In this document: positions 200 to 64,000 of the stretch, one piece after another
Layout of the letters: the number at the start of each line of letters is the position of its first letter
Numbering within the stretch: the stretch's first letter is position 1
IMG/VR virus record: IMGVR_UViG_3300050821_004371
Location: 1 to 64,000 of that record
Origin: a virus
Strand: one strand, 5' to 3'
DNA length: 64,000 nucleotides
Notes under the pieces: generated by a model
What the model saw: only the letters and a program-made list of their open reading frames with translations
The model's database searches: none
Told to the model about the DNA's origin: nothing
Program-made: the position numbers and the translations under genes

Positions 200-233
200 T
201 AGTGTCTTATCCGTTTTCCGTATTTTCTTGCAC

Positions 234-258
234 AAAACCCCTTTATTTAGGGGGTTTC
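234..258 (-). terminator. Probable intrinsic terminator
   Basis: Minus strand CGAAACCCCCT-AAATA-AAGGGGTTTTGT hairpin directly after the stop at 260. Confidence 0.5.
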
Positions 259-259
259 G

Positions 260-1099
260 TTACGAACCGTAGTTGGCGGGCTGCTCTTTGGCTTCTCCAA
301 ACACAACTTCTGCTTTTAGGCCGCCGTGCTCGCCTTCATCAAGGATGCACATAATTCCTCCGGGCAATACGCGGTCGGTGTCTTCTGGTCGCCCGAGTTC
401 ATCCTTGCCCTCGACTTGCTTTTCTAGCTGGATGCAATTCGAACTGTGGAATACTAGCAGGATCGGCCCGTCTTCCTGTCCTTCTTTGATGTAGCGTTTA
501 ATCGCTTTGGTCTGACGCTTCGCGAACTCCCGCAGGCTTTCGCCATCTGGAATCGGTTCGTCAGGGTTGTCGATATAGTGATTGAAAGCTTCCTGCGTAT
601 CCTCTCGCGACTTGCCCGAAAACATTCCTACGTCCCACGGGCGAAGCGTCGGGTCTTTCTCAGCTTTGACACTCGGTAGTACAAGTTTAGCAGTTTCTTG
701 TGCTCGCCCGAGATCAGAACAGAATACCCGCTTGATACCTTTATCGGACAAGTATTCGCGGGCCGCCTGAGCTTCTTTCTTGCCCGTAGCATTCAGGGGA
801 ACTTCGATCCACCCTCGAAATAGCTTATCTTTGTTCCCGTTCGTTTCCCCGTGGCGAACCGCGTAGATGATCGCTGACTTTCGGCTTTGGTATCCGTTGG
901 AGCAGTCATCTGCGTCTACTTTAGCCCGCCCGTCGGCATTCTTGGGAACTTCCGGGTCAAGCACGACCAATTGGTTGCCGCACGATTCGTCATCCTTATA
1001 CCACACGCAGTTTCCGCAATTTCTAGGCTGGGGATTTTCCGAGGCGCGGACAAACCCCGAGACCCGCGTACCATCTTGTCCTTTCATTTCTCCTGCCAT
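260..1099 (-). CDS. Histidine phosphatase (phosphoglycerate mutase family) with N-terminal Cys-rich domain
   Basis: RHGETNGN..FRGW catalytic motif, SDLGRAQET, GESL, late FHSS; N-terminal CxxC-x8-C-x25-C. Confidence 0.85.
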   Translation of the reverse strand: MAGEMKGQDGTRVSGFVRASENPQPRNCGNCVWYKDDESCGNQLVVLDPEVPKNADGRAKVDADDCSNGYQSRKSAIIYAVRHGETNGNKDKLFRGWIEVPLNATGKKEAQAAREYLSDKGIKRVFCSDLGRAQETAKLVLPSVKAEKDPTLRPWDVGMFSGKSREDTQEAFNHYIDNPDEPIPDGESLREFAKRQTKAIKRYIKEGQEDGPILLVFHSSNCIQLEKQVEGKDELGRPEDTDRVLPGGIMCILDEGEHGGLKAEVVFGEAKEQPANYGS

Positions 1100-1891: not shown

Positions 1892-4033
1892 CTACGCCAC
1901 GTCACCAAAACCCACGCCCCCCGGCGTTCCCTCGGTTTCCTCGGAACGGGCCGAAGATTCTACAGCGAACCTCATGAGGTCGCGTTTAATACGCCCCTGA
2001 GTATCTTCGTCCGCCTGCTGAGATTTCAGTTGAGCTTTTTGATCGTTAAGCTGCATCTGTGTCTGTAGCGGGCCTTGCTGTTGCTGCTGAAGTTTCTGTT
2101 GTCTACGGGCTTCCATCTGCGGAGTCAATGGCTTAATCAAGTCGCGGCGATCTTTCCAGTCGCTCGCCATCATAACCATATCGAGCAGCGTCAACTGGTC
2201 AACGTAGTAACCTTGGTCAGCCAAGAATTCCAAGAACTGCGGGTTTGCCAAGAACTGTTCGAGCAGGACTAGGCTCTGCGCCATAGTCTTTTTTGCTGAC
2301 AAGCTAGCGCCCGCGAGTACCTCGAAGGTTACTTTGCCGTTGTGATATTCCTGCATCCCGTCTACTTTTATTGTTTTATTAGGATCGGCGGGATCAACAT
2401 CTTGGTCGAAAGACGCCAGATAGTCTTTCCCCAACTCGTCGCCTAGAATGTCCTTTATCTCTTTATCCGACAGGTACGTGAAAATAAGTTCGTCTAGAAT
2501 ATACAGCCAAGGAAGGAACACTTGATCCAAGAAAGCGTCCAGAGGGCCATCTAGCCGCGTGGCGGACGCTTGAGCGAGATTATTAGCGCCCGTAGCCGAG
2601 CGCCCCATTCCGTTACGAGGGCCAGCAGAAGAACCCTGCACCAGAGCTTGATCAGCGCCCGTCGTGCTCTCGGTATTGGCTTCAGAATTTTGTAGCGCGG
2701 CCCAGGTTTCTGCGGGCACTTTCGGCTGTTCGAGTAATTTGTACGCCTTATCCACTTCGCCATCGACAGATACGATCTTTCCGATAGAAGTGCGGATCAT
2801 CTGCGTCGGGCTATTAGAATCTCTTGCCCGCAGATACACCGGGTTAACGCCAAAACTCAGAATCTTGAGAATCGAGTTGATCGTGCCTTGATCGACACGC
2901 TGGTTTTGCCCGACCGTAAGGCCGATGCCCATGCCGTAGAAGGCTTTCGGGCGATTCCACCAGTTGGCGGACAAGAAATTGATCTTCTTGAATTCGTTTT
3001 CCGCACTGTAAATTGTGATCTTGCGATTGACGACGATGATCTTTCGTTTCTTGTCAACGTACTCCAGAACTTCAAGCTCTTGCGCCAGCGGGTCGTTGCT
3101 CGAAATAATCGTCTTCTCTTGCGCGTGGTGAACAACTCCAACCGTAGTGTTCGTCTGATCCGTTCGTAAAGTGCTAGGCGTCATCGACGCTTCCATAGGA
3201 GGGGCCCAGAGTTCTTTTAATTTATCGTCCGACCAATACGCGCCCCAAGTCCACCCAGGTAGCGGCTTTCCATTCTCATCGACGTTAGCGTCTTTCAAGT
3301 CTTTTAGAGCGTAGAAATCCAGGAAGCGGCGGTCGATTACGTGCTTCGCTTCTCGGATATCCCCTACGTCCAAAGTTGCATCGATCAAGACATTCCCTAA
3401 TGGCCGAGACTCAAAGAAAGGAATGTAGCAAGTTCTTTCAGTCCACTTAATTGTGGGAGGAGCATCGGAATGAATTGTCTCGGAACCGCCCGCAGAGTCG
3501 GAAGTTTTGACGGAGTTTGTTATACGGCGGGGAATCTTTTTTGTGACCCGCTTAATCCCCCATTTCCAAATGCCCGTGCCAAGGAAACAAAACTGTTCCA
3601 AACCCCATTTTACTTCTCGCTTAAAATTACATTCGTCCAGCATCACAGACATGACCGTAGTTTTTTCGTCTACAGTTTTTTGTGACGTGCCGGGGCGCGG
3701 GCGAAGAACCATCGGGGGGTCCTCGAAAAATATCCCGGCATATAGCTTCGGGACAACCGAATTCACCACCTTAGCCACGGTGAACCTCTGCACGTTAGGC
3801 TCTAAGGTGTATGAATTTTCGAACACAGTCAGGGGGCGCGGCGCTTGAAATAGAAGATCAGAATCTCTCCATAAAAGTGCCCATTGTTTGCTTTGAATAA
3901 ACGCTTCGTCAATTACGGCGCACCCAACTACAAGGGCAGTTGTATCCTCTGCGGTCTTGAGATCACCTTGGCTGGTGAAATCGTTCGCGACGAGAACTTT
4001 GTTCGGGTTGCCCTCTGTGGGGATTAGCGCCAT
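1892..4033 (-). CDS. Portal protein (podovirus-type)
   Basis: 713 aa, directly after the terminase; NWWNRPKAFYGMGIG motif; Gln-rich coiled C-terminus. Confidence 0.8.
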   Translation of the reverse strand: MALIPTEGNPNKVLVANDFTSQGDLKTAEDTTALVVGCAVIDEAFIQSKQWALLWRDSDLLFQAPRPLTVFENSYTLEPNVQRFTVAKVVNSVVPKLYAGIFFEDPPMVLRPRPGTSQKTVDEKTTVMSVMLDECNFKREVKWGLEQFCFLGTGIWKWGIKRVTKKIPRRITNSVKTSDSAGGSETIHSDAPPTIKWTERTCYIPFFESRPLGNVLIDATLDVGDIREAKHVIDRRFLDFYALKDLKDANVDENGKPLPGWTWGAYWSDDKLKELWAPPMEASMTPSTLRTDQTNTTVGVVHHAQEKTIISSNDPLAQELEVLEYVDKKRKIIVVNRKITIYSAENEFKKINFLSANWWNRPKAFYGMGIGLTVGQNQRVDQGTINSILKILSFGVNPVYLRARDSNSPTQMIRTSIGKIVSVDGEVDKAYKLLEQPKVPAETWAALQNSEANTESTTGADQALVQGSSAGPRNGMGRSATGANNLAQASATRLDGPLDAFLDQVFLPWLYILDELIFTYLSDKEIKDILGDELGKDYLASFDQDVDPADPNKTIKVDGMQEYHNGKVTFEVLAGASLSAKKTMAQSLVLLEQFLANPQFLEFLADQGYYVDQLTLLDMVMMASDWKDRRDLIKPLTPQMEARRQQKLQQQQQGPLQTQMQLNDQKAQLKSQQADEDTQGRIKRDLMRFAVESSARSEETEGTPGGVGFGDVA

Positions 4034-6206: not shown

Positions 6207-6267
6207 TTTCGTTCTCCAGTTCGTTTTCCGTACAATAGCCTAATTTCCGTACAGCACGAAAACCTAA

Positions 6268-6441: not shown

Positions 6442-6468
6442 GACTTCTCCTTAAATTCGTTTTCCGTA

Positions 6469-6663
6469 CTATTTACCGCCGAAGTTTAAAGCGAACTGCC
6501 CCATTTTGGCGGTATGTTTCACGTTTGAGTTTGCAGCGGCGTGTTTGATGCTTTCGGGCAGTGGATCGGAATCTTTCCCAGACCATCCGTGCCTACGCGC
6601 CCACTGATGAAGTCCGCCTCGTCTAACCTTAAATGCCGCCCGATGCAGCGAATTTCTTGCCAT
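6469..6663 (-). CDS. Small basic phage protein
   Basis: MARNSLHRAAFKVRRGGLHQW...; ends at TAG followed by the repeated motif. Confidence 0.55.
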   Translation of the reverse strand: MARNSLHRAAFKVRRGGLHQWARRHGWSGKDSDPLPESIKHAAANSNVKHTAKMGQFALNFGGK

Positions 6664-8278: not shown

Positions 8279-8293
8279 TGTTCGTTTTCCGTA

Positions 8294-8638
8294 CTACCAC
8301 ACGTCTTCGAATGCCCCGCGCAACGCCAGTCGCTTCATCTCGTCCTGAAAGACTTTTCCGTGGTCAGCTTTGGGGTGCGCGACGTGAACGCACTCGTGAA
8401 GTAAATCAGCCCGAACGTACCGCCAGCATTTGAGGAAATTGCGGGATATGTAAATCGCTACGGGCTCCGTGGTTCCTTCTTTGAAGCAGGTCACCGCGCA
8501 AGTCGCCCGATTGAGCCCGAAGAACTTTTTCATCTGCCCGGGCGTGATGAAATTAACTTCTATGTTCGGAAGTTTGCCCGAGAAATATTTGCGGTTGTAC
8601 TCGTTGTAGAGACGCTTGAGCGTACGGTGGGATGGCAC
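8294..8638 (-). CDS. SprT-like zinc metalloprotease
   Basis: YNRKYFSGKLP, LLHECVH (HExxH), HGKVF. Confidence 0.75.
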   Translation of the reverse strand: MPSHRTLKRLYNEYNRKYFSGKLPNIEVNFITPGQMKKFFGLNRATCAVTCFKEGTTEPVAIYISRNFLKCWRYVRADLLHECVHVAHPKADHGKVFQDEMKRLALRGAFEDVW

Positions 8639-9952: not shown

Positions 9953-10357
9953 CTACCTTTCGATTTTCGGGCCCTTGTCAGCGATCCGAAAATATTCGAT
10001 CATTTTTCTGGCTAGATCGTTCGCCAATGTGTTAGAGTTCCGGGAAATCCATTTGAATTCCACGGGCACTCCGAGCCCCCGAATAGTTTCAGTTCGAAGA
10101 CGTATATCAGAATCTTTATCAACCGATTCGATGACTTGTTTAGCGTCACCGAAAACTTTTAGCGGGCAGGTACAATCCATTTTCCGTACGAAGGAATCCA
10201 GACCGTAGCAGATCGCGTACTTCTCCGCGACTTTAGGCTTAATACCTTGCCCGATCATCCCCCAGCCGCGATCTATTTCAATCTTGTCCTTAAACAGGAC
10301 GTACCCGAAATAGCCCGTACCGTGCTTGGACGATCCGTCACAGAATAGCGAATACAT
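9953..10357 (-). CDS. RNase HI-like protein
   Basis: LFCDGSS, AEKYA, FGDAKQVI, WISRNSNTLANDLA. Confidence 0.8.
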   Translation of the reverse strand: MYSLFCDGSSKHGTGYFGYVLFKDKIEIDRGWGMIGQGIKPKVAEKYAICYGLDSFVRKMDCTCPLKVFGDAKQVIESVDKDSDIRLRTETIRGLGVPVEFKWISRNSNTLANDLARKMIEYFRIADKGPKIER

Positions 10358-11925: not shown

Positions 11926-12630
11926 TTATCCGTTTTCCGTATAGAACTTATGGCATGCTCGGACTTGTTCGGGCGAGAGTTGCGTAATCACCGCAGCATC
12001 AGGAAAATATTCCCATACGGGCTTCGATCTTTTTTCGATGCAGGCAGCGTCGGGGCACGAACAACCATGCCCGTATTCGGCTGCAATTCCTCGCCCCGGC
12101 TGAATGTACGGAATATCCGTTAACCGGATTCCATGCTTTGCGAGCAAAGTTCCGATGCCGCGATCTTCCGCCCAATCATCGATCCCATCTTCAGCAACGT
12201 GGGCCATCGAGCGACGCGACAGCCAATAAGCGCCGCCGCCCGCATAATCTCCGGGCTTTCGGATGCCCGCGTAGTCAGCTTCTACGATCTTGAATTTGCG
12301 GAAATTTATGTAGCCGTCATCATCGGCCTTGAGTACGTGATCGTAGCCCGAACGCAAGGCGAACTCAAACATCTTTCGAACTTTTTCGGGCAAGCCTGCG
12401 TAGTCGTCGGGAGCATCAAGCTCGATATAGCGCGGGAGATTTACTTCACCGTCACCGCGCCCGACAAAGAACTGCAAATCAATCTTGCCCGCAAATCTCG
12501 CGAGCCAATCCCCGTACCAAGTAGACAGAAGCGTCTGGATTCTGTCGTTCGCGCCCGCGAGATGCGCGTGTAACTCATGTTTCGGATACGCGAGAGCGCG
12601 ACAAGTGACGACCGCGATTAAGCTACGCAA
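11926..12630 (-). CDS. Second GT31-like glycosyltransferase (paralogue of 10680..11366)
   Basis: APDDYAGLPEKV, LKADDD, GGAYWLS, AED; start uncertain (TTG at 12630 chosen, ORF open to 12795). Confidence 0.7.
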   Translation of the reverse strand: MRSLIAVVTCRALAYPKHELHAHLAGANDRIQTLLSTWYGDWLARFAGKIDLQFFVGRGDGEVNLPRYIELDAPDDYAGLPEKVRKMFEFALRSGYDHVLKADDDGYINFRKFKIVEADYAGIRKPGDYAGGGAYWLSRRSMAHVAEDGIDDWAEDRGIGTLLAKHGIRLTDIPYIQPGRGIAAEYGHGCSCPDAACIEKRSKPVWEYFPDAAVITQLSPEQVRACHKFYTENG

Positions 12631-13838
12631 GGCCCTATGCCCAAGGGGATATACTTGACAGTCGAATCCTCGGCTAAGTGTTTCAGATATCGCCAAGGAT
12701 CGATCACGGTTTTGCCCGAGAAATTTTCTTCCTTGTATTTCGAATCGGGCAGCATGACCACAAATACGTCTGGATCGGGAAGTTCGAGCGGCCAACTGCT
12801 GTTCTGCGGAATCTTTCTTTTCTGTAGCTCTCTAGCAAGCGCGACGCCCGCCGATTCTTCCAGCAAGCCCGAACCAATCTTATATTCCCATCCAAGAACT
12901 TGGACTACATTGTCCTTGCCTAATTTTTCCACAACATCCGCCAAGTATAAAATCTGTGCCCGATTGAAAGCGTCGATGGTAAGAGGGAAACTTTGCCCGA
13001 GCGTTGCCATCGCCCGCGTATCTCTCGGTAAGCACGGACCCCCGTAACTCGTTCCGCCCTTCAACAACTTCTTTCCGATTCGACTATCCAGCCCAATGGC
13101 TTCGGAAACAACATCGCAGTCTGCGCCCGCGATATTCTGGCAAACTCTCGCTAACATATTTCCGTAGCTGATCTTCATGCACAGGAAATTATTTACGGCC
13201 AACTTTGTAACTTCGGCATTCTGAATCGACATTCGGGCGATTGGTGCGTCCGAAATCTTCTCGTACACCGAACTGACTCGGGCTTCGGTTAATGGGTCGC
13301 TAGCGCCGATCAGCACAAAGTCTGGGTTTAAGAAGTCTCGAATAACCGACCCAAGGGCTATAAATTCGGGATTATAACAGAGGCCGAAACTTTCCCCGCA
13401 TTTTCGCCCGCTATATTTCTCAAGAGTCTCACGAATCGGGCCCCAGGTATCTCCAGGCATAACGGTACTCGTTATGACTACGGGATGGAATGCGGGCTTC
13501 GACTTCGCCAACGTTCGCCCGATTTCTTCGCATACGGGCAAGATGTATTCCAAGGAGAACCGCCCGTCAGGATTGCTCGGCGTCGCGGTGACTACGAAAG
13601 TTACGTCCGCAAAACGGACTGCTTCGGAAATACTCGTGGTCGCCCGAAGGCGGCTTTTGTTCTCGGTCAGTAATTCTTGCAATCCGGTTTCGGATACGGG
13701 CGCAATGCCGAAGTTTATTGCTTTGACTTTCTCAGGGTCAGCGTCGCAGACCAGAACTTCGAAGCCCCTGGACGCGAGCGCGACCGCCATCGGACTCCCG
13801 AGCTTACCTGCACCGATGATGCCGATTCGACTAACCAT
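12618..13838 (-). CDS. UDP-glucose/GDP-mannose dehydrogenase family protein
   Basis: GAGKLG Rossmann motif, STVMPG, YNPEFI..G, YGGPCLPRD. Confidence 0.9.
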   Translation of the reverse strand: MVSRIGIIGAGKLGSPMAVALASRGFEVLVCDADPEKVKAINFGIAPVSETGLQELLTENKSRLRATTSISEAVRFADVTFVVTATPSNPDGRFSLEYILPVCEEIGRTLAKSKPAFHPVVITSTVMPGDTWGPIRETLEKYSGRKCGESFGLCYNPEFIALGSVIRDFLNPDFVLIGASDPLTEARVSSVYEKISDAPIARMSIQNAEVTKLAVNNFLCMKISYGNMLARVCQNIAGADCDVVSEAIGLDSRIGKKLLKGGTSYGGPCLPRDTRAMATLGQSFPLTIDAFNRAQILYLADVVEKLGKDNVVQVLGWEYKIGSGLLEESAGVALARELQKRKIPQNSSWPLELPDPDVFVVMLPDSKYKEENFSGKTVIDPWRYLKHLAEDSTVKYIPLGIGPCVA

Positions 13839-22398: not shown

Positions 22399-22487
22399 TG
22401 CTTGTCCGCTTTCCGTACAAAATTTAGGCGGGCAACGGGCGGCTGATTACCGAACGTTGCCCGCCATCCGAAAGATACAGCAAAACT

Positions 22488-47615: not shown

Positions 47616-47860
47616 TGGTTTATCCAAGATTTCAAATTTGAAATTGCGGGCCATTCGGATCAAGATATGATGTGGTTTGAACCCGGCCCGAGCGAATGCG
47701 GGTATATTACTGATGGGGTTTGTTTCGGGCACGATGATTCAGCGGGGTACGTAATGGACTTTTCCGATCTTCAAAAATGCTATTTCGCCGCCTTGGAAAC
47801 CCGTCGTCGTATTGAAGATGGCGACGATACGGAAAACGAATCGCCCGAAGGAGAGTAAAC

Positions 47861-48503: not shown

Positions 48504-48997
48504 TGCGTGGAAAAAGCGACCGAACTCGAATATCTGCAATATTTCTATTCGGCTGCGGGCGATTGTTTCGGGCCTGCCGACGACGATATTTACGACGCCA
48601 TCAAAAGAAATTTCAAGAAGTGGAAGGGCAAGGCGTTGCCTGAAGGATACAGCGATCCAGATTTTCCCGAGGAAGAATAAATGCCCGTAATCTTGCTAGT
48701 TGCTGGACTCGCTGTCGGCTGGGTTCTTACGGGCGTCTTGTACGTTTTCCGTACTCGCGGGCTTCGGGAAACCATCGGGTATCTCGAAGTTGCCCGAGAA
48801 GAACTTATGCAATCGGCCTTGGACGCCGAAAAACGAGCGGGCGTCGCCGAGACCGAAAGCCAGTACATGAAGCTGACGCTCGCAAACGTATTACAGAGGC
48901 CCGCAGTAGCAGTAATGACCGACGAAAATATCCAGCAGTTAGGGGCGATCATAGAATCCGTTATGAAAGCCCCAGATAAGTTGAATTAGGAGGAAAG

Positions 48998-51038: not shown

Positions 51039-51356
51039 ATGCGGATTTATCGGATCGCCCCAGTAGCGTTCTCTGGGGCCGATATGACGGGCTTTACAAT
51101 CGGGGTAAAGCAGGAAGAGATTCTCTGCATTATACAGAAAACAGATTACGAGAAATTGCCCGAGGAATCAAGGCCAACACTGATAATGCGGTACATTTTC
51201 AAAACTCCCGAGGAACAAGAAGCATTCAGCCTCGGGTCTCGTATTGAGGTCGTCACGGGCTTCGAGCCTTTTGCTACGATGGTTTATGGAAGCCCGCAAT
51301 CTTTTGGGGCATACGATGAAAAGACCGGGCAGTACGTTTCGGAGGTTGGTAATTAA
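51039..51356 (+). CDS. Hypothetical protein
   Basis: AAGGA RBS. Confidence 0.55.
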   Translation: MRIYRIAPVAFSGADMTGFTIGVKQEEILCIIQKTDYEKLPEESRPTLIMRYIFKTPEEQEAFSLGSRIEVVTGFEPFATMVYGSPQSFGAYDEKTGQYVSEVGN

Positions 51357-51841
51357 TGATCCTAGAAATCGGGTATCTGACGCCGCAGCGGTATACAGAT
51401 GAAATCAATATACTCAAACGCATCCAGGGCGGGTGTACGCAAATAATTGCGGAAATTTCTCCCGCCGACAGGTCGTTCTTCGAAAACGAGGGATTTTTCG
51501 TCGGCGGGACAGTTTCTCCCAAAACCGGGCCCATCCGTCTCATCGTCAAGAAGAATCTTCGAATAGACATCAGCGAGCCGTTGTGTACGGAAAATGAATT
51601 AACTATCGCGGAATCTGAGTTCCTGAAGATGCTAGCGGCCCGCTATCCTACACCGTATGCGCCTTGCATTGGTTTGTCGCCCGACTGGAGGACGATAGCC
51701 CGAGAATGGTATGAGGGACCTTATAAGCGGGCAATGCAAGAAGTCGGAGATCGAATTGCCCGCAGCGGTGGAGAAAGCCAACTAACAATGGTCGGCAATT
51801 TCGAGGGGTCCCCAGACGGAACGGACACGTGGAAAATATGA
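51356..51841 (+). CDS. Hypothetical protein
   Basis: GGAGG RBS, TAATG coupling. Confidence 0.6.
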   Translation: MILEIGYLTPQRYTDEINILKRIQGGCTQIIAEISPADRSFFENEGFFVGGTVSPKTGPIRLIVKKNLRIDISEPLCTENELTIAESEFLKMLAARYPTPYAPCIGLSPDWRTIAREWYEGPYKRAMQEVGDRIARSGGESQLTMVGNFEGSPDGTDTWKI

Positions 51842-52528: not shown

Positions 52529-53380
52529 GTGAACAGCGAAGCGACGACCTTAAATCATCTGACCGAAATTGAAACCATGCTCCAAGACTACGAACCTATA
52601 GTCAAGCAGAGCATGTTGATTGACGGACAGGCTCGGTATGTAACTTGGGATTTCCGCAAAACCGCGCACGAAACTATTGAGCTTCTTCAGATCACCGATA
52701 TTCAGTTCGGGCACAAACAGTGCGACGAACAGAAATTGCACGAATACTTGTCGTGGGTCTTGGCCGCCGATAATCGCTACATTCTGCTTGTTGGCGATTT
52801 GATTGACGCGGGGCACCAATTGTCCAAGGGAAGTTGCTTCGAGCAGATTGGCGATCCGCAGACCGAAGTTTGGCGGCTTGTAGAAATTCTCGCCCCGCTT
52901 CGGCACCGCATTCTTGGGTATGTCGGCGGCAATCATGAGCGGCGTACGATCCCGACCTTCGGAGATGCTGGGAAGAACATCGCATCCATTTTGCGGATTC
53001 CGTACAGCCCTGGCAAGCAGCACATCGACATCTTGTTCGGGGATCATAAACCGTTCAAGATCACTCTCTGGCATGGTGGGGGAAGCGGCGGGACAAAAGG
53101 CGCTATCGCTAACACGGTATACCGCCTGATGATGCAGGCGGACTCTCAACTGTACCTTCTTGGACACCTTCACCAAGCCGTTGTGTTGCCCGATGCTCGC
53201 GAAACCAGAGACGGGAAAGGCGGGATTAAAATCACTAAGATCATGGGCGCGATGGGCACATCGTTCTTAAAGCATTATGGGACGTACGCCGAAGTAATCA
53301 TGGGAACCCGCCCGCAGACAATTATGATGGCTCGTGCTATAATCGAAAAGAACGGACATTGGGAGTTGACTTTACGCTAG
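52529..53380 (+). CDS. Calcineurin-like metallophosphoesterase
   Basis: TDIQFG, GDLID, GNHE, WHG, GHLH. Confidence 0.85.
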   Translation: MNSEATTLNHLTEIETMLQDYEPIVKQSMLIDGQARYVTWDFRKTAHETIELLQITDIQFGHKQCDEQKLHEYLSWVLAADNRYILLVGDLIDAGHQLSKGSCFEQIGDPQTEVWRLVEILAPLRHRILGYVGGNHERRTIPTFGDAGKNIASILRIPYSPGKQHIDILFGDHKPFKITLWHGGGSGGTKGAIANTVYRLMMQADSQLYLLGHLHQAVVLPDARETRDGKGGIKITKIMGAMGTSFLKHYGTYAEVIMGTRPQTIMMARAIIEKNGHWELTLR

Positions 53381-54388: not shown

Positions 54389-55363
54389 ATGGCTCTCAAA
54401 GAAGCTCTCACCCGTTTAGATAAATTGTTTGGGAAAGGCGTTGTCCTTCGCCTTGGAGACCACAAACCCGTTTCCGTTGAAAGTATAAGCACGGGCATCA
54501 TGGGACTTGACAACGCCATCGGCATTGGCGGGCTTCCCAAAGGCCGAGTGGTAGAAATCATCGGGGCTGAATCGGGAGGCAAAACCACCCTCACTTTGTC
54601 CGTGATTGCAGAATGCCAAAAAGCAGGGGGTATCGCAGCTTTTATCGATGCCGAGCATAGTTTTGATCCAGTTTGGGCCAAGAAGCTGGGCGTGGATGTG
54701 GACAACCTGCTGGTTTCGCAGCCGGACTATGGCGAGCAGGCTCTCGAAATCGCGGAGAGTTTGATTCGGTCGGGCGATATAGGAATCGTTGTTGTTGATT
54801 CCGTAGCGGCTTTGACGCCAAAAAGCGAGATTGAAGGAGAATTCGGCGACTCGCAGATGGGTTTACAAGCCCGAATGATGTCGCAGGCAATGCGTAAGCT
54901 GACCTCCGCCACTCATAAATCCAACGCAATTCTGGTGATGATAAACCAAATTCGCGAGAAGATTGGCGTTTTTTACGGGTCTAATGAAACAACTCCTGGT
55001 GGGCGGGCCCTACGTTTTTATTCAAGTGTCCGCCTAGACGTACGTCGAGCGTCCACGCTGAAAGATGGGGAAGAACCAAGGGGCATTCGCGTCAAGGTTA
55101 AGGTAATCAAGAATAAGTGTTCGGCTCCGTTTAAGACGGCAGAATTCGATCTGATTTTCGGGCGCGGAATTGACAAAGAAGGCGATCTCGTTGATCTCTG
55201 TACGGAAAACGGAGTGATTTCTAAGAGCGGGGCGTGGTTCGTCACCGAGGGCGGTAGGAAGTTTCAGGGTAGGGATGCCGTGGTTCAGGCGTTTCGCGAT
55301 GATTCGGATTATGCGGGCGGGTTCAAAACCAAGTTGCTCGAAAAGCTATGCTCAAAAGGATGA
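54389..55363 (+). CDS. recA: RecA recombinase
   Basis: [61 protein letters not shown]. Confidence 0.96.
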
Positions 55364-55460: not shown

Positions 55461-56402
55461 ATGAACCTTCACAGCTATCCAAAAGTTTTTGCTATCGGGC
55501 ACCGAGCGGTTGCCGACCTGTTTCAGGGCCCCGTGCTCGTTGAGGAAAAGATTGACGGCAGCCAGTTTTCCTTCGGTACGGTTAACGGACAACTTGAGCT
55601 CCGATCCAAAGGCGCGGAACTCTACCCCGACAACCCCGAGAAGATGTTCTCGCTCGGAATCTCTGCCGCCAAAGAACTAATCCCCGTCCTTCACGATGGC
55701 TGGACGTATCGGGCGGAGTTCCTCCAGAAGCCGAAGCATAATTGCATGAAGTACGGGCGGGTGCCTGCCCGCAACGTGATCTTGTTCGATGTCAATACGG
55801 GCGACGAAGTTTATTTAACTCGGGAAGAAAAGGAAGAAGAAGCTGCCCGTATCGGGCTGGAAATAACGCCCGTACTTTATCAGGGCTTGGTAGACTCGCC
55901 CGAAACTCTTTACGGGCTTCTGAAACGAGATAGCATCCTTGGCGGAGGGAAGATCGAAGGAATCGTAGTCAAGAACTACAATCAGTTTGGCGCGGACAAG
56001 AAAGTCCTGATGGGGAAGTTCGTGACGGAGGAATTCAAGGAAACGCATTCCAAAGAATGGAAAGCCGATAACCCGAGCGTAGGAGACGTAATAGATCGAA
56101 TCGTAGCAACTCTGCGGTCAGAAGTCCGCTGGAATAAATCCATTGCCCGGATGAAAGAAGCGGGGGCGCTCGAAAATTCCCCCAAAGATATCGGAATCTT
56201 GCTCAAAGAAATCCAAACAGATATCCGAGCGGAAGAACTTGACTTCATTCAAGGTAAACTGCTAGAGTACGCTCTGCCTCGCGTCCTGCGGGCGTCCACG
56301 GGAGGATTCCCCGAATACTACAAGAAACTGCTGCTTGAATCAGCATTCGAGGAGAAAGAAAGTGCACCATCGTTGGGAGGGTCGTCACGAGAAGTCAATT
56401 GA
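55461..56402 (+). CDS. ATP-dependent RNA ligase (Rnl2-like)
   Basis: YPK, EEKIDGSQF (motif I), YRAEF, ILFDV, IEGIVVK. Confidence 0.75.
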   Translation: MNLHSYPKVFAIGHRAVADLFQGPVLVEEKIDGSQFSFGTVNGQLELRSKGAELYPDNPEKMFSLGISAAKELIPVLHDGWTYRAEFLQKPKHNCMKYGRVPARNVILFDVNTGDEVYLTREEKEEEAARIGLEITPVLYQGLVDSPETLYGLLKRDSILGGGKIEGIVVKNYNQFGADKKVLMGKFVTEEFKETHSKEWKADNPSVGDVIDRIVATLRSEVRWNKSIARMKEAGALENSPKDIGILLKEIQTDIRAEELDFIQGKLLEYALPRVLRASTGGFPEYYKKLLLESAFEEKESAPSLGGSSREVN

Positions 56403-56567
56403 GGAAATAGCGAGCGAAATCGGTTGCTCGAAGCGGGCGGTCAAACAGGCGTTAGATCGAGGAATGAAGAAGCTTAGGGACGGGCGGGCTGTACGAATAA
56501 AGGATTTGGCAATCGCCCGAGAAAAGGAAGTTCGTTACGGGCTTCCGAGGATAGTCAAGGAGGGTTT

Positions 56568-57748: not shown

Positions 57749-58000
57749 ATGTGCGTAGTTAGTGCTATGATTGACAGTTCCCGGCAATGGGGCCCGATTC
57801 AAAAATGGCCGTATCCCGTAGTACAAGATATGTCAGACATTATCCGAAGGCTCGCGGAGATCGACAAGAAACTCGGGGCCAAGGACTGCTTTGATCCCAA
57901 GAAAGATTTTTTCATTCAGGAATTGTCCGAACGATTGGCGGCTTTAGAAGCGGTAGCGAAGACGAAGAAAGCTCGTAAGAAAATACAGAAAACGAACTAA
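57749..58000 (+). CDS. Hypothetical protein, last gene of the plus arm
   Basis: AGGAGG RBS; convergent overlap with 57997..58218. Confidence 0.65.
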   Translation: MCVVSAMIDSSRQWGPIQKWPYPVVQDMSDIIRRLAEIDKKLGAKDCFDPKKDFFIQELSERLAALEAVAKTKKARKKIQKTN

Positions 58001-58218: not shown

Positions 58219-58252
58219 ATTTTCCTTTCGGGCGATTTATACTTTTTCCGTA

Positions 58253-59251
58253 CTACGCGGGTCCGATGGCAAGCCAAGTAAACGGCGACCCGTCAGAACT
58301 TACCGTAGTAAAACTTGAAGCCGACGTTGTGTTCAACTGAGTCGTGCCCGTGCCGGGGCCCGTGCTCAACAAGACGTTCGGGGTTCCGCTGAAGGCGGGA
58401 CTGAAATTTACGGTCGTGCTGCCCGTGGCCGTCCCGTATTCGATTCTGAGCCCGTTTGCGGGCGGGATTATCAAGCCCGTTTGCCAATCGGCAGCGCTTG
58501 AGGAAGTCGCGGTCAAAACCTGTCCGGCAGTCGGCGTCCCGCTGACGGTTACGCCCGAAATCTGAGTTGTGTTTGTCGATCCTTGCGGGCCTTGGAATCC
58601 TCTCGGGCCTTGGGTCCCCTGAGCGCCCTGGAATCCCTGTGGGCCAGCTCCGGGCGGACCCCACTGGACACCGACGCCCGTAGATGTCAGAACTTCCCCA
58701 GACGTTCCCTGAAACCCGATATTATCGGTAAGCTTCCCGTAGATTCCAACGTTGAGCAGCGCCGCGTCCCATTCCGCGCCCTGAAAACCGAGGCTCTGGG
58801 TCGTGTTGTTTGTCGCAGGCAATAGACTGAAATCCTGAATCGTCTGGTCGCCCGAAGGAATCAGAAGAACCGCTCCCGGATAGCTGACGCTCGAACTTGC
58901 GGGCGTCAACGTCGCGAGATTGATCGGGCCGGGGCCCATGATTACGACGTTGGTAGGCCCGAAAACCAAAGCGCCCGTCCCGTCGTAAACGGTCATGTAG
59001 TAGAACGTGCCCGAGGGGACAAGGGCGGTATTCGGCCAAAGTTGGGCGTTCGCGGATTGCGGAATGCTGCCTAAATTATTGAGAGCGAAAGAAACAGTGG
59101 GCGGGCAAATCTGATTGGTGTTGAGAACTGTGGCGTCTTGAGAAAGACGGAAAGTTATAGTCCCGTACGGATTCGGGACACCAGAGGAAAATGCAATCGG
59201 TTGCCCGTCTGCGAGTGTGAAGCCACCGCCATATATCTGAACTGTCGCCAT
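58253..59251 (-). CDS. Tail fibre/spike with collagen-like segment
   Basis: GPQGFQGAQGTQGPRGFQGPQG; C-terminal TVNFSPAFSGTP..WLAIG (H-type lectin-like). Confidence 0.75.
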   Translation of the reverse strand: MATVQIYGGGFTLADGQPIAFSSGVPNPYGTITFRLSQDATVLNTNQICPPTVSFALNNLGSIPQSANAQLWPNTALVPSGTFYYMTVYDGTGALVFGPTNVVIMGPGPINLATLTPASSSVSYPGAVLLIPSGDQTIQDFSLLPATNNTTQSLGFQGAEWDAALLNVGIYGKLTDNIGFQGTSGEVLTSTGVGVQWGPPGAGPQGFQGAQGTQGPRGFQGPQGSTNTTQISGVTVSGTPTAGQVLTATSSSAADWQTGLIIPPANGLRIEYGTATGSTTVNFSPAFSGTPNVLLSTGPGTGTTQLNTTSASSFTTVSSDGSPFTWLAIGPA

Positions 59252-60058: not shown

Positions 60059-60075
60059 AGAATCCTTTTTCCGTA

Positions 60076-60339
60076 CTAGTGTTGTTTCGGGTCTACGGGC
60101 GATGACCCGAGCCTGCGAACTGGAGCGCCTTTTTTCGCAGCGTACAGATGCAAAGGATGCGGGCTAATCCCGTTCGCCTTGTCCTGATCTGCGGGCGCGT
60201 TTTGGACACTGAACTTTGCCCCTACGGGCGTGTCGGACTTACGGTTGTCCACGTCTGAATCTGCGGGCTTGATGCCCGTTGGGTTGGGGAGTACTCGCCC
60301 GCTAAAATCTGCGGGTGCGCCTTGTCCTTCGTCAGCCAT
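60076..60339 (-). CDS. Hypothetical protein
   Basis: TAATG coupling, ends TAG plus motif. Confidence 0.55.
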   Translation of the reverse strand: MADEGQGAPADFSGRVLPNPTGIKPADSDVDNRKSDTPVGAKFSVQNAPADQDKANGISPHPLHLYAAKKGAPVRRLGSSPVDPKQH

Positions 60340-60745: not shown

Positions 60746-62737
60746 TTATTGGTTTGTGTAAACTACTTGGTCCTGATCTTCGGGCTGCGATAGCGGTTCG
60801 GTCGCCCCTTGAAGTACGTTTCCAAGAGCGCCTTTAGCCGCTGTCCCAACTCTACGGGCTGCGGGCGATGCTTCTAGAGTCGCCCCAATCTTTCCCGCTG
60901 TACGGAAAGCGGACCACATTTTCGGGCTGTTAGCAACTTTGTCAAGCAACTCCGTGGCTTTCCCGAAGTCACCCGAACCCGCCAATCCTAAAGCGATTCC
61001 TAATCCGCCGAGCGCGGGATGAATTGCTCCGCCGCCTGCACCCGCCCCGCTAAGAACGCCCGCACGGACAAGCTTCTGATAATTGGCCGCTGATTTCAGG
61101 TCGCCCGCAAGTTTATCCAAACCCGCTTGAGCCGTCCCCATATCAAACAATTTCTCTTTGACTTCGGGCGGCAGGTTATCAATTTGCTTGAAGTTCTTCA
61201 CGAACTTCGCGGGATTGATTTGTCCAGTTTCCGAACTAGCATCCGCCAATTGCCTCTGGATAATTCCTTTGCCAAGGTCTTTTACGGCGGGTTCACCGAT
61301 TGTCTCGGACAACGTGTTAATCTTATTCAGCTTATCGCCGCCCTGAAGCAAGTATTTCGCGGCGTTGTCAAGCTTGGTAGTCGAGTCAATGCCCGGATCG
61401 GACAATCTCTGAATGGCGGGCGTCTGAAACAACTTTACTTTGTCTTTGTACGCCGAGCGCAAAGCATCGTAATCCTGCGCGGCTTCAGGCTTTCCCGATT
61501 GCTTCGCAAGATTCGCGATTGTATCGTCGATTCCGTCTCGGAGTTTCTGGTAGACTTGAACGTCAGCGCGATCCGCCGAGCTAGTTCCGCCTTTCGTCAG
61601 CACTCCAATCTTTTCCCCGAGTTGCTGGCGGTACTGAATAAGTTCGTCGATATTCATATTGCCCGCACTCTTGGGATCGTTCAACGAGTTCAGGAATTTC
61701 TTTGATTCGTCCGATCCTCCGGCAAGCCCCTGAAACGCGCTTCCGAGAACGCCTTTTCCCTCTGTTTTTCCTTGCAAGGCTTCTTGTGCGGCTTTCTGTA
61801 GCGGGCTATCTTGATACGGGACTTTTTGGTCACCCAAATCTCCCTTGAGCTTCTGGATTCCAGATTCAAAATCCCCGTGCATCTTGGTTTCGGCGTCGTT
61901 AATTTGAGTCGCGAGATTTTTTCCGATATCCGAAGCACTCGGAGCATTCTTCCCCGCTTCTGACGCTTCCTGAACCGCTTTCCCCGCTTCGCCTGCTTTT
62001 TCCGCTACTCTCCCGAGCGTCCCGAAGGCTGCTCCAAGCACACCCGAAGTCGCGCCCTGCTCAACCCCCGCCTTCAATCCTTTTTCCGGACTTCCGGTTT
62101 TCGCTGTCTCTTGAGCGCCCGCAACAGCCCCTTGGCGGAGTGCGTCCATTCCCGCCCCGACTAATCGGGCAAGTAACGGATTCTTCTGAATCAGGGCTTT
62201 GGCTTCCTCGCCAAGTTCGCCCGTAGCTTTTCCTACGTCAGCGCCCATCTGAATCGCCCGCATCAACCTCGGGCTTTTCTGAAGAAGGCCCATCGCGCCC
62301 GAAATCTGTTTGAACTTGTCAGCCATCGACAAGCCTTTCAGGGCTTCGTCGCCGAGCATGAATTCCGCCAGATTCTCGCCGCCGTATCCTACCCATTGGG
62401 CGGTTCCTTCCGGGCTTTGTATGCCTTTTTTCTCGGCGGCCAATCCTTCCGTAGGGGCGAGCGTTTCCCCGACACCCGGAACCTTGTTGAGCAGAGTTCC
62501 GATTCCGTGAACCGTGTCCATCAGGGCATTTCCGAAGCCCGAAGATACGTCGCCCGCAACATCGCCGATCTTGCCGAGCGTAGACTCTTCGGGCTGTCCG
62601 CTTTCCGTACTAGCGGGCTGCGCCATAACGATATCGCCCGAAGGAGGAGGCGGAATGTGCCCGCCCGCAGGTTGAGCCTGTGGCTGCGCTTGGACTGTAG
62701 TTCCGCTAGGCGGTGCTGGAATCTGATCGTCTGCCAT
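60746..62737 (-). CDS. Putative internal virion (ejection) protein
   Basis: 663 aa, A/G/Q/K-rich and helical, in the late block. Confidence 0.55.
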   Translation of the reverse strand: MADDQIPAPPSGTTVQAQPQAQPAGGHIPPPPSGDIVMAQPASTESGQPEESTLGKIGDVAGDVSSGFGNALMDTVHGIGTLLNKVPGVGETLAPTEGLAAEKKGIQSPEGTAQWVGYGGENLAEFMLGDEALKGLSMADKFKQISGAMGLLQKSPRLMRAIQMGADVGKATGELGEEAKALIQKNPLLARLVGAGMDALRQGAVAGAQETAKTGSPEKGLKAGVEQGATSGVLGAAFGTLGRVAEKAGEAGKAVQEASEAGKNAPSASDIGKNLATQINDAETKMHGDFESGIQKLKGDLGDQKVPYQDSPLQKAAQEALQGKTEGKGVLGSAFQGLAGGSDESKKFLNSLNDPKSAGNMNIDELIQYRQQLGEKIGVLTKGGTSSADRADVQVYQKLRDGIDDTIANLAKQSGKPEAAQDYDALRSAYKDKVKLFQTPAIQRLSDPGIDSTTKLDNAAKYLLQGGDKLNKINTLSETIGEPAVKDLGKGIIQRQLADASSETGQINPAKFVKNFKQIDNLPPEVKEKLFDMGTAQAGLDKLAGDLKSAANYQKLVRAGVLSGAGAGGGAIHPALGGLGIALGLAGSGDFGKATELLDKVANSPKMWSAFRTAGKIGATLEASPAARRVGTAAKGALGNVLQGATEPLSQPEDQDQVVYTNQ

Positions 62738-62740
62738 ATT

Positions 62741-64000
62741 TTATTTGCCCGTCGCTACCCATTGCTTGCCGTCGTAACCCCATTTTCCATCCGAGCTAGT
62801 TGCCGCGAAGTTTTGTGCGGGCTTCGGGGGCGTAACGGGCTTGTCCTTCGTGCTCGTAACAGTTCTGCTCTGAACGCCCATCCTCTGCAAAGCTTGTTTG
62901 CTTTCGGGAGCCAGAAGACTTGGATATTCGTCTCCCATCGTGTTTGAATATTTTCGGCCAAGCTCGGCAAGGCGGATATCGCCGCTTTCTCCGAGTTTCT
63001 TTAAAGCCGATTCGATCTGGGCGGGCGTGGAATCGTCGTTCAGCACGGTTTCCATTACCTTGATATCGCCTTCGTGCTCCGCCCGATTGTTGTTCAGGAA
63101 ACTCATGTACTCTTTCCGTACAGGAACGAGAGCGGTTTGGAACGCTTGGAAGTTCGTGTCGTTGGCGGCGTTCTTTCTGATCCAATTCAGAGGACGGTTG
63201 ATAAGCGGGCTGCCCGTCTGCCCGCGCATCGCGCCCGTAGCAGACAAAGCATCGTTCGCGTGCCCGAGGAACGTGTTGAACGACACGATACTGTCAGCGG
63301 CTTTCCCGTCGCTGAAGTCGTTAAGAACTTTAGTTTTAGCTTCAAGCTTTGCGGGCGAATAATCCTTCGGGTCTTTCCCTTGGGCTTTTGCTTCGTCGGC
63401 AATCATGTTATAGACACGGGTTTTCTGATCCCCCCGGAAGGAGACTAAATCGCGGATTTGCGCGAGGTTGCCCGAAACAATGTTTTTAGCCGCCGTGGAT
63501 AAATCTTTGTCCTCAATCGCCCGTTGAGCGTTGATTTCCTGTTCTTTATCCGTAAACTTGGTATTGGCCTTGATTTTCAGGAAATCCTGCGCCCGCTGCT
63601 TATCTTGAGGCGTAGATTTGGGGTCGGACAAGATGCTGGCGGCTTTGTTGTCATCCATCTTGTCACCTTCAGCTTCAAGGCGGCCTTCCGTTACCCCTTT
63701 TTCCTTCGCTTTCGCGAGATCAGCAGCTTTTTGATTCGACAATTTCTCAAGATTCTCTTGCCCGAACAACTCCGACATGATGCCCGCAGCCTGCGGGTGA
63801 TTCTTCTGGATTGACTTAATCTGATCGTTCGGATCGGCGCTCGCAGCATCATTATGGAACTTCTCAATCGCGGACAATACCTGCGGGTTCTTTTTGATCT
63901 GCTCCGCGAGATCGACTTTATCCCCGCCTACCTGCTCGTGAACGTCATCAAGTTCCCGCTGCGTCTGCTGGATCAGGTCCAATTTATGGTTCATCAAGGC
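62741..64000 (-). CDS. Putative internal virion protein, N-terminus outside window
   Basis: ORF open to the edge; C-terminal WGYDGKQW. Confidence 0.55.
   Translation of the reverse strand, partial: ALMNHKLDLIQQTQRELDDVHEQVGGDKVDLAEQIKKNPQVLSAIEKFHNDAASADPNDQIKSIQKNHPQAAGIMSELFGQENLEKLSNQKAADLAKAKEKGVTEGRLEAEGDKMDDNKAASILSDPKSTPQDKQRAQDFLKIKANTKFTDKEQEINAQRAIEDKDLSTAAKNIVSGNLAQIRDLVSFRGDQKTRVYNMIADEAKAQGKDPKDYSPAKLEAKTKVLNDFSDGKAADSIVSFNTFLGHANDALSATGAMRGQTGSPLINRPLNWIRKNAANDTNFQAFQTALVPVRKEYMSFLNNNRAEHEGDIKVMETVLNDDSTPAQIESALKKLGESGDIRLAELGRKYSNTMGDEYPSLLAPESKQALQRMGVQSRTVTSTKDKPVTPPKPAQNFAATSSDGKWGYDGKQWVATGK

Follow-up and report, generated by a model that had tools for sequence, protein, structure and literature searches.

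The stretch of DNA analyzed here (the window) is the first 64 kb (64,000 nucleotides) of a single virus contig of 91,482 bp, IMG/VR record IMGVR_UViG_3300050821_004371, throughout which one short sequence motif recurs. Its genes are those of a tailed phage, including a portal gene (1892-4033), a large terminase gene (4053-5909), a family-A DNA polymerase gene (34652-36697) and a primase/helicase gene (43855-45795), and it also encodes an Erf-like annealing protein, SSB, RecA, a PD-(D/E)XK nuclease, an RNA ligase and two endonuclease VII genes. A tyrosine integrase gene (Table 1) is compatible with a temperate lifestyle, and neither an RNA polymerase nor a sigma factor was detected among the scanned phage proteins. 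The plus-strand early arm spans about 26-58 kb, while the minus-strand arm runs from 25.3 kb to position 1 and then, on the circular map, from 91.5 to 58.2 kb, the late arm amounting to 57 kb. Genes were called with a crude codon-score caller that missed some open reading frames (ORFs; e.g., 29579-29914), so that the labels "in gene" and "intergenic" are approximate.

The nearest described phage is Tunturiibacter phage Tunturi_3 (38% terminase identity), an Acidobacteriota podovirus of 97.6 kb and 51.3% GC (PMC11924767); the paper on the Tunturi phages does not mention any motif. A megablast search of 20 kb against a phage collection returned no near-identical record. About 20 IMG/VR contigs carry the motif, and all of them are homologous to this genome (66-96% nucleotide identity). 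The relatives compared below are IMG/VR contigs, lettered A-J or L-numbered.

Anatomy and distribution of the motif

We counted 41 copies of the exact core TACGGAAAA/TTTTCCGTA in the window and 53 in the whole genome; dinucleotide-preserving shuffles gave 0.83 +/- 0.91 (maximum 4) for the window. This bears out a preliminary description of the window, which had counted about 40 copies by eye where fewer than one was expected; all 16 of the coordinates that it quoted are in our match list. The 14-mer GTACGGAAAACGGA with up to two mismatches gave 60 matches (0.78 expected), among which are the TACAGAAAA variants reported earlier at 27958, 40138, 41001 and 48183. An iterated 19-nucleotide position matrix (threshold, 12 bits or more) returned 103 sites in the genome, 78 of them in the window (Table 1), compared with 2.65 in third-order Markov nulls. 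The motif is the sole long over-represented word in the genome.

Aligned copies read T-W-R-TACGGAAAA-Y-G-R-A-Y-W, with information extending from 3 bases before the T to about 6 bases after the A-run. Since conservation stops outside the aligned block, the motif is a free-standing 17- to 19-mer and not a piece of a longer repeat. Each site is a quasi-palindrome of 15-17 bp, R-T-a-C-G-g-AAAA-C-G-g-A-Y, in which, numbered from the central A, T-6 is matched by A+6 in 101 of the 103 sites, C-4 by G+4 in 98, and R-3 by Y+3. Asymmetry is confined to the center (G-A-A-A-A) and to -5/+5. The preliminary description had called the motif asymmetric, which does not hold for its invariant positions; the version found in a sister clade (see below) is a near-perfect palindrome. 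Two half-sites of 5 bp each, R-T-N-C-G and C-G-N-A-Y, lie about one helical turn apart around the A-tract, an arrangement that points to a dimeric protein on duplex DNA. G is found at -7 in 72 of the 103 sites and C or T at +7 in 93; CG occupies -4/-3 and +3/+4 around the GAAAA center, pyrimidine-purine steps occur at +/-(3-4) in about 98% of sites, and A/T is found at +/-8.

All genome modules, in the early and late arms alike, carry sites at about 1 per 0.9 kb. By the crude gene calls, 36 of the 103 sites are mostly intergenic, whereas only 13% of the DNA is non-coding (p = 2e-8), and about 65% lie inside genes. The 60 nucleotides upstream of start codons are enriched about 3-fold (27 sites, or roughly 26%, at 29 of 155 genes), where one site often takes up exactly the space from a stop codon to the next start. 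Just inside the 5' ends of genes sites are depleted; elsewhere they are uniform along genes. There is no dominant cluster around a regulator gene (no 1.5-kb stretch has more than 5 sites). Sites are more regularly spaced than under random placement (coefficient of variation, 0.72 vs 0.98; P = 0.0002), and the largest site-free gap is 2.8 kb, against 4.6 kb for random placement (P = 0.0016). The simplest reading of this even spread is selection for genome coverage, intergenic DNA being the cheapest place for a site.

With respect to orientation, 78 of the 103 matrix sites (76%) are sense and 25 antisense. For exact cores the pattern given in the preliminary description was reproduced (14 sense and 1 antisense in the left minus arm, mixed in the plus arm), but a reading of it as a functional signal was not supported. 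Zero-order composition alone predicts a sense-to-antisense ratio of 2.47:1 and codon-shuffled genes 1.9-2.4:1; sites in genes show 2.4:1 and intergenic sites 28:8, the latter not significantly above expectation. The sense bias is accounted for by the purine-richness that the motif strand shares with coding strands, and retention of antisense sites is no poorer than that of sense ones (see below).

Selection on the nucleotide sequence

Inside genes, the T of the motif is the second base of a codon at 26 sites, the third at 17 and the first at 4, while another 20 sites occupy the three antisense frames. In alignments of less than 80% identity, third-codon positions were identical at a rate of 0.848 within the motif, 0.597 in the 60-nucleotide flanks and 0.562 elsewhere (p = 2e-13); in the 80-90% band the values were 0.908 within the motif and 0.694 outside (p = 8e-6). 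Non-coding positions followed the same trend. In no fewer than 62 of the 85 comparisons made, the site was retained at the orthologous position, several apparent losses being artefacts of alignment gaps. Among in-gene sites, antisense copies, which are equally strong, were retained in 85% of comparisons and sense copies in 78%. The use of all six frames, together with the conservation of synonymous positions, rules out codon or peptide bias. Judging from these alignments, the motif is under strong selection as DNA, as the preliminary description had proposed.

Such selection has left its imprint on proteins. The recurrent peptides noted earlier were seen again, namely VRKTD/VQKTD, CTENG/STENG and, from antisense sites, SVFRT, and sites do lie inside the genes for RecA (55201), DNA polymerase (35930) and primase/helicase (44114, 44441 and 44884). 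The recA site encodes CTENGV where Escherichia coli RecA has GVKEKL, between the conserved LVDL and GAW blocks; by this alignment, it sits in a tolerant stretch of the protein. Checks of the kind proposed at the outset gave two results: the E. coli orthologue lacks the CTENG peptide, having GVKEK in its place, and codon-shuffled genes fail to reproduce the motif, contrary to an explanation by codon or dipeptide bias.

A variant of the motif was found in the sister-clade relatives L147 and L148 (terminase 74% identical), whose sites read GTNCGG-AAA-CCGNAC with the core CGGAAACCG. The ratio of CGGAAAACG to CGGAAACCG is 43:0 in this genome, 31:1 in relative A (about 88% nucleotide identity), 30:2 in relatives B-E (70-77%), 3:7 in L147, and 3:8 in L148 and L052 together. 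The variant occupies the same stop-motif-start slots, as in TAG-TCCGGAAACCGTAC-gactt-ATG. On these counts, the A-to-C switch between the sister clades (AAAAC vs AAACC) is concerted and clade-specific.

A second, shorter word is also strongly enriched. GCCCG/CGGGC is present in 1,094 copies in the 91,482-bp genome, one per 84 bp, a 5.1-fold excess over the compositional expectation and about a 4-fold excess over that from codon-shuffled genes. All frames and both strands carry it, coding and non-coding DNA are equally dense in it, and its context is [not G]GCCCG[not G]AA. Conservation at its third-codon positions is 76.9%, vs 60-64% for controls, and its one-step neighbors are not depleted. All motif-carrying relatives share it at 8-18 copies per kb; Tunturi_3 has 1.25 per kb. 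By these comparisons GCCCG, too, is under selection, and possible roles for it are the target of a sequence-specific DNA modification, the target of a coating protein, or a Chi-like word. Elsewhere in the window, a dATP/dGTP diphosphohydrolase N-terminal domain (PF18909, E = 2.4e-8; 57264-57740) adjoins a weak match to nucleoside 2-deoxyribosyltransferases (56867-57271), a neighborhood that may hint at altered nucleotide pools or modified DNA, with a possible bearing on GCCCG.

Promoters, candidate binders and comparable systems

In several sigma70-like promoters, the spacer is taken up by the reversed motif, which also provides the first two nucleotides of the -10 hexamer, giving TTGACA-N6/7-TCCGTTTTCCG-TA-TAAT (Table 1). 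An exact TTGACA lies 17-18 nucleotides from a reversed motif 4 times, against 0.068 expected (P = 8e-7). The core is in the spacer of 5 of the 21 best promoter-like sites, about 5-7 sites are within or touch a sigma70-like promoter, and in the divergent control region each of the two promoters is in contact with a site. Since a protein bound in the spacer would block RNA polymerase, the promoter-embedded copies look like operators. At two consensus promoters the start codon follows the -10 hexamer by only 6-7 nucleotides (window 25264-25298; genome 70737-70775), roughly where transcription usually starts; the mRNAs may therefore be leaderless.

The only clear helix-turn-helix (HTH) regulator found is an HTH_8 protein of the Fis/NtrC type (Table 1), which has 9 homologues among 5.8 billion proteins and is nearly confined to this lineage. 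It shows no co-variation with the motif (in contig C an R is changed to Q with the motif unaltered), and we regard it as no more than a candidate binder; the records of the variant clade, which are incomplete and include the fragments IMG/VR UViG_3300050821_001994 and 3300021559_000076, yielded no copy of it. The gene product of 22120-22398 showed only a sub-threshold match to HTH_23. Neither of the HTH proteins put forward earlier as possible binders (at 22120 and 29914) is supported as one. Several orthologues of the HTH_8 protein (L151:8001-8291; P0124-P0127) end in PV(R/Q)KTD, the translation of the motif in the frame it uses most often, so that a site lies at the 3' end of the HTH_8 gene in several relatives.

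Among known systems, the closest in working appear to be the stoperators of Cluster A mycobacteriophages such as L5 and Bxb1, which are 13-bp asymmetric sites bound by a monomeric repressor, with 20-30 copies per genome of about 50 kb and a functional orientation rule (PMC6550527, PMC9283540). Here as there, one short site is spread genome-wide, a few copies in promoters and most not, with related but distinct consensus sequences in different clades, in phages that have their own DNA polymerase, endonuclease VII and integrase. Unlike stoperators, the present sites are 15- to 17-bp quasi-palindromes, about 103 of them in 91 kb (roughly 4 times more sites), two thirds lie in genes, and the orientation bias can be accounted for by composition. 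The likeness to stoperators drawn in the preliminary description is thus upheld as a functional analogy but not as membership, because the asymmetric, monomer-bound 13-mer that defines Cluster A is replaced by a longer dyad; by analogy, the motif set may be regarded as a variant of the dispersed operator array.

The layout also resembles that of Fis-type sites, which have a 15-bp core with G/C at +/-7, Y-R steps at +/-(3-4) and an A/T-rich center (PMC4784862). All of these core features are present in the motif, with G in 70% at -7 and A/T at +/-8, and the phage encodes a PF02954 HTH protein. E. coli Fis sites, however, are degenerate and read mainly by DNA shape, whereas the motif is almost invariant at 10 positions; the phage HTH_8 protein shows no co-variation with the motif, and near-identical helices occur in motif-free phages. 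The start-associated sequences (SAS) of Cluster K mycobacteriophages are 13 bp long, lie 3-7 bp from start codons, contain a Shine-Dalgarno core and occur in one orientation in the non-structural half of the genome (PMC3203893). Like SAS, the motif is a lineage-specific word at many gene junctions, sometimes over the upstream stop, and is not enriched in the cellular genomes searched, SAS being absent from host genomes. In contrast to SAS, only about 26% of motif sites are within 60 nucleotides of a start, and they occur in both orientations and in all modules. The motif further differs from polar chromosome words such as Chi and KOPS in being dyad-symmetric, with a compositional strand bias and no host enrichment found.

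DNA uptake sequences, such as the DUS of Neisseria and the USS of Pasteurellaceae, are a property of the host genome that is shared by its phages. The motif resembles them in its density of about 1 per kb, its occurrence in genes in several frames and its imprinting of peptides, but it is not enriched in any cellular genome searched, and the earlier suggestion of an uptake-type sequence finds no support. The C1 repressor of phage P1 and the Streptomyces phage phiC31 have operators of about 17 bp at some 15-20 dispersed places, those of phiC31 being conserved intergenic inverted repeats. The motif may resemble them, but these operators are about five-fold fewer and lie at promoters or in intergenic DNA, not in genes.

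Cellular genomes were scanned at two scales. An 18-mer scan of one genome from each of about 185,000 species gave chance-level single matches, apart from one contig of a metagenome-assembled genome (MAG). In 201 Acidobacteriota genomes (a sample that includes one unpublished genome, G025, on which no claim rests), TACGGAAAAYGRA matched 0-4 times each, much like a reversed control pattern, compared with about 45 matches in the 91 kb of the phage. Tunturi_3, of similar GC and size class, had 4 matrix matches, which is chance level. The possibility, named at the outset, that unrelated genomes of the same composition carry the motif equally often is therefore not borne out. The exceptional MAG contig, QIAN01000352.1 (Acidobacteria, 10.5 kb), holds two perfect inverted 18-mers TTGTACGGAAAACGGATT (L124:7644-7661 and L130:1858-1875) within similar arms of about 28 bp, which flank 2.2 kb of small ORFs with a third core between them. 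Its ORFs have no homology to the phage ORFs, and the 7.9-Mb MAG has no further copy of the 18-mer; the pair may represent a related regulator-operator pair or a small mobile element.

A 159-residue gene (L141:9788-10267, plus strand; genome 73788-74267) is transcribed against the late arm from the motif-bearing promoter at genome 73743. Its product is 42-54% identical to cellular PEP-CTERM secreted proteins, including ones named from Candidatus Sulfotelmatobacter, and lacks the sorting tail; on this homology the gene is a host-derived moron that links the phage to Acidobacteriota as host, and the idea that it encodes an autoregulated repressor was rejected.

Table 1. Motif sites, promoters and selected genes. 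Positions are those of the window unless marked "genome" or given with a contig. A row naming no other feature is a motif site, given as its 15-bp core (positions -7 to +7) with its score in matrix bits; promoter scores are matches to the consensus
Position	Strand	Score	Feature or context
14300..14328	-	11/12	sigma70-like promoter TTGACG-18-TATAAT; exact forward core TACGGAAAA (14308-14316) in spacer
25271..25298	-		sigma70-like leftward-arm promoter TTGACT-16-TAATAT; ATG at 25264, 7 nt after -10
25350..25378	+		sigma70-like rightward promoter TTGACG-17-TAGACT; entire 17-nt spacer is motif (CTGTACAGATAACGGAT)
29556..29585	-	9/12	promoter-like TGGACA-18-TATTTT; reversed motif in spacer supplies TA of -10; conserved in relative A
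30977..31006	+	11/12	strong sigma70-like promoter TTGACA-18-TATATT; reversed motif in spacer; conserved in relative A
genome 66062		10/12	promoter, reversed motif in spacer
genome 70737		12/12	promoter, reversed motif in spacer
genome 73743		11/12	promoter, reversed motif in spacer
29914..30333	+		Fis/NtrC-type HTH_8 protein, 139 aa, Cys/His motifs after HTH; PF02954 E = 9.6e-11
31587-32669	+		tyrosine integrase gene; phrog_1 E = 1.8e-50
31138-31620, 33990-34655, 39064-39360, 47133-47615, 25507-25899, 49621-50046; L141:16032-16730			homing-endonuclease-like genes
209..223	-	26.7	between crude gene calls, sense
2992..3006	-	21.5	portal gene, sense; identical in relative L059
4039..4053	-	28.2	fills terminase stop (TAA)/portal start junction; stop directly before motif; ATG 19 nt after motif T
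6219..6233	-	26.3	intergenic, sense
6455..6469	-	25.9	right after TAG stop; intergenic, sense
8280..8294	-	27.4	stop/start junction: TAG, motif, ATG at +15; kept in L056 at 73% local identity
9056..9070	-	28.5	stop/start junction; kept in A, E, I
10175..10189	-	22.9	in gene, sense; kept in A, E, H
11928..11942	-	27.2	just upstream of ATG at 11925
12115..12129	-	14.2	weak
13605..13619	+	16.1	TCCGCAAAACGGA form; in gene, antisense; kept in C, E, H
14092..14106	-	19.2	TACGGTTAATGGA form; in gene, sense; kept in C, E, H
14937..14951	-	19.3	in gene, sense; lost in C, H
15445..15459	-	20.4	in gene, sense; kept in C, H
17058..17072	-	25.2	directly upstream of ATG at 17059
17530..17544	+	18.2	in gene, antisense
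18917..18931	-	27.8	in gene, sense; kept in A, C, H
19792..19806	-	18.8	in gene, sense
22404..22418	-	25.1	upstream of weak-HTH gene 22120-22398
22699..22713	-	15.4	weak; in gene
24169..24183	-	22.1	sense
24339..24353	+	25.1	intergenic, antisense; kept in A
24525..24539	-	22.8	sense
25299..25313	-	21.5	abuts/overlaps -35 of leftward promoter
25358..25372	+	22.8	fills spacer of promoter at 25350
26103..26117	-	13.5	weak
26592..26606	+	21.6	in spacer of weak promoter-like site (9/12); sense
27012..27026	+	22.3	sense
27505..27519	-	26.1	antisense to arm
27957..27971	+	26.5	TACAGAAAACGGA form; intergenic
28444..28458	+	20.9	sense
29559..29573	+	22.5	directly upstream of ribosome-binding site of gene 29579-29914
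29679..29693	+	20.3	inside ORF 29579-29914; kept in A
29791..29805	-	19.2	inside ORF 29579-29914, antisense
30299..30313	+	14.1	weak; 3' end of HTH_8 gene
30581..30595	-	28.7	in gene, antisense
30989..31003	-	25.2	embedded in promoter at 30977
31648..31662	+	15.8	weak
32629..32643	+	22.2	sense; kept in A
33406..33420	+	21.0	sense
35917..35931	-	27.5	DNA polymerase gene, antisense
37742..37756	-	23.2	antisense
37982..37996	-	25.9	intergenic, antisense
38558..38572	+	21.7	Erf-like gene, sense; kept in A
38837..38851	+	21.8	Erf-like gene; lost in A
38981..38995	+	17.4	Erf-like gene
39360..39374	+	25.2	stop/start junction: TAG, motif, GGAGGAG, ATG; kept in B
40137..40151	+	26.3	SSB gene, sense
41000..41014	+	26.1	PD-(D/E)XK nuclease gene
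41641..41655	+	21.4	intergenic
41849..41863	+	23.6	sense; kept in A
42769..42783	+	22.2	sense; kept in A, D, J
43004..43018	+	25.6	contains ATG (TACAGAAAATGG)
43660..43674	+	28.4	over TAATG stop/start overlap
44113..44127	+	23.0	primase/helicase gene, sense
44428..44442	-	12.6	weak; primase/helicase gene, antisense
44871..44885	-	28.2	primase/helicase gene, antisense; kept in 7/7 relatives compared; flanks 59-100% identical
45930..45944	+	25.5	sense
46199..46213	+	26.3	over TAATG stop/start overlap
47429..47443	+	21.4	kept in B
47827..47841	+	19.3	
48182..48196	+	23.9	TACAGAAAA form
48740..48754	-	24.4	antisense
50415..50429	+	25.5	in gene, sense; kept in B, D
51132..51146	+	21.5	
51585..51599	+	24.0	
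52984..52998	-	15.5	weak; antisense
55200..55214	+	24.9	recA; kept in B, D
55576..55590	+	17.4	TACGGTTAACGGA form
56491..56505	+	15.0	weak
57983..57997	+	22.6	kept in D
58239..58253	-	24.1	right after TAG stop
60062..60076	-	25.6	stop/start junction; kept in D
60900..60914	+	22.0	in gene, antisense
61222..61236	-	17.3	
62077..62091	-	21.6	
62596..62610	-	24.4	
63107..63121	-	17.1	

Other features of the genome may be noted here. Homing-endonuclease-like genes are unusually numerous (two HNH_3+AP2, one AP2, two HNH and two endonuclease VII). Rfam models matched a permuted tmRNA at L142:2593-2854 (minus strand; genome 84593-84854) with 68.5 bits (gathering score 47) and a group I intron at L142:6029-6202 (minus strand; genome 88029-88202) with 51.4 bits (gathering score 50); ARAGORN found no tRNA or tmRNA. 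The late arm carries a sugar-nucleotide gene block with UDP-glucose dehydrogenase and its neighbors (window 12618-17059), and a glycosyltransferase-methyltransferase fusion lies at genome 75777-77483.

What the dispersed sites may do

The dyad symmetry, the register within sigma70 promoters and the clade-specific variant make a protein-binding site the best reading of the motif, and we consider it likely that some protein binds these sites on duplex DNA. Of the earlier proposal of a protein-binding site under selection, the selection is seen in the conserved synonymous positions, and the binding is what symmetry, register and variant suggest. As to function, we tentatively prefer, at somewhat less than even confidence, to regard the sites as dispersed, stoperator-like operators for a dimeric and probably phage-encoded DNA-binding protein; binding, the phage origin of the binder and repression are all things that we infer from sequence. 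A dimeric protein, probably encoded by the phage lineage, would occupy about 100 dispersed sites. At the handful embedded in promoter spacers, the bound protein would exclude RNA polymerase, each site acting as an operator for repression. At the remaining 90 or so, the same protein would silence, dampen or time transcription genome-wide, as at Cluster A stoperators, or these sites might instead serve a related coating, architectural or marking role.

Several observations weigh against operators of this kind. Many strong promoters carry no site, and one promoter that does (genome 73743) drives the moron, whose silencing one would not expect of a prophage repressor. No binder was found among the scanned phage proteins, and Pfam scans of about 70 proteins revealed none that resembled a CI, Cro or Cluster A repressor, no search with a Rep sequence having been made. 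The recognition helix of the HTH_8 protein is invariant even in unrelated phages that lack the motif, while the residue before this helix varies (R, S, Q or K) among orthologues that share an identical motif. About one third of the sites are intergenic and those in genes are uniform, which fits coverage or architecture as well as it fits control of transcription. Although an integrase is encoded, a TerL search of 401 Acidobacteriota genomes found no integrated relative, and the nearest isolates grow lytically (PMC11924767).

The most serious competitor, though we hold it rather unlikely, is that the sites are architectural or self-marking, a protein coating, compacting, bending or marking the chromosome at regular intervals, perhaps for replication or recombination factories, packaging or protection from nucleases, with the promoter overlaps secondary. 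The even spacing, the uniform in-gene placement and the density of about 1 per 0.9 kb in both arms speak for it, as do the match to the Fis-type core (PMC4784862) and the co-occurrence of GCCCG as a second selected word, which points to a broader DNA-level code. It is opposed by the fixed register in perfect TTGACA promoters (P = 8e-7) and by the two touched promoters of the divergent region, which look like operators; the site is also far more base-specific than known sites of nucleoid proteins, and no candidate protein was found. The failure to find a phage binder, the host links to Acidobacteriota and the two perfect inverted 18-mers, 2.2 kb apart on a MAG contig without phage homology, would suit an improbable alternative in which a host transcription factor or nucleoid protein recognizes the motif and the phage thereby senses the state of the host or titrates the factor. 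None of the 201 Acidobacteriota genomes, however, exceeded the control count, the MAG has only two matches in 7.9 Mb, and the concerted A-to-C switch is simpler to explain with a co-evolving phage protein. It is more doubtful still that the conserved 17-mers at gene junctions are recombination linkers, that is, homology patches for the exchange of modules among related phages. Homology breakpoints do lie within 30 nucleotides of a site in 17% of cases, vs 6.8% for random positions, in a genome encoding RecA, an Erf-like protein, SSB, a PD-(D/E)XK nuclease and two endonuclease VII, but the effect is not significant once junctions are controlled for (10 of 27 with a site vs 32 of 127 without; p = 0.24). 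Moreover, two thirds of the sites are in genes, and a linker needs neither dyad symmetry nor promoter register.

A signal at the RNA level (an mRNA processing site, the target of a translational regulator, or an element associated with starts or with ribosome binding) seems slightly less probable again. About 27 sites lie within 60 nucleotides upstream of starts, 76% of sites are sense, and for several genes the GGA within the motif is the only Shine-Dalgarno sequence; the orientation bias, however, is what composition predicts, antisense sites are equally strong and conserved, most sites are far from starts, and five lie upstream of transcription starts, inside promoters. That antisense sites are kept slightly better and that no pairing covariation between -3 and +3 exists among the 103 sites both argue against such a role, and an RNA hairpin (UCCG-loop-CGGA) was rejected on the latter ground, as most sites would contain an A.G mismatch. 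We give very little credence to a phage-specific promoter or activator site for middle or late transcription. The genome has no RNA polymerase of its own that was found and few sigma70-like promoters in the 57-kb late arm, and the motif is its only long over-represented word, yet no -10-like hexamer lies at a fixed distance from sites in general, which, with the many site-free strong promoters, indicates that the motif is not itself a promoter or activator site. It is, moreover, palindromic, present in both orientations and all temporal modules, and located inside the spacer of host-type promoters. An artefact of codon, dipeptide or base composition, or a shared compositional signature, is hardly tenable: the purine-rich motif strand accounts for the orientation bias, but not for 41 copies vs 0.83 in dinucleotide shuffles or 103 vs 2.65 in Markov-3 nulls, nor for the six frames, the synonymous conservation and the lack of excess in Tunturi_3.

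The motif sites and the enrichment of GCCCG can also be taken together. Two selected codes would then be superimposed, a dyad site every 0.9 kb or so and GCCCG about every 84 bp, and they might constitute a phage "chromatin" or self-marking, in which dedicated proteins or modifications would identify phage DNA as self and would organize or protect it, a speculative idea that we think improbable. To our knowledge, no such system, distinct from repressor-operator control, has been described in phages, and we know of dispersed operator arrays from very few phage groups, chiefly the Cluster A mycobacteriophages. If the sites are indeed operators, the principle of the operator array would hold for uncultured soil phages with links to Acidobacteriota as well, and would there be carried further, with about 100 evenly spaced sites, mostly in coding sequence, maintained at a measurable cost to synonymous and amino-acid choice. 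The sister clades, one base apart in their motifs (AAAAC vs AAACC), provide a natural experiment through which, given complete genomes, the binder and its specificity could be found by co-variation. The enrichment of GCCCG, for its part, may be a sign of DNA modification or coating by a system that recognizes specific sequences. In annotation, this lineage can be told by the motif in metagenomes, and the motif flags gene junctions and host-type promoters in genomes where most genes lack a known function.

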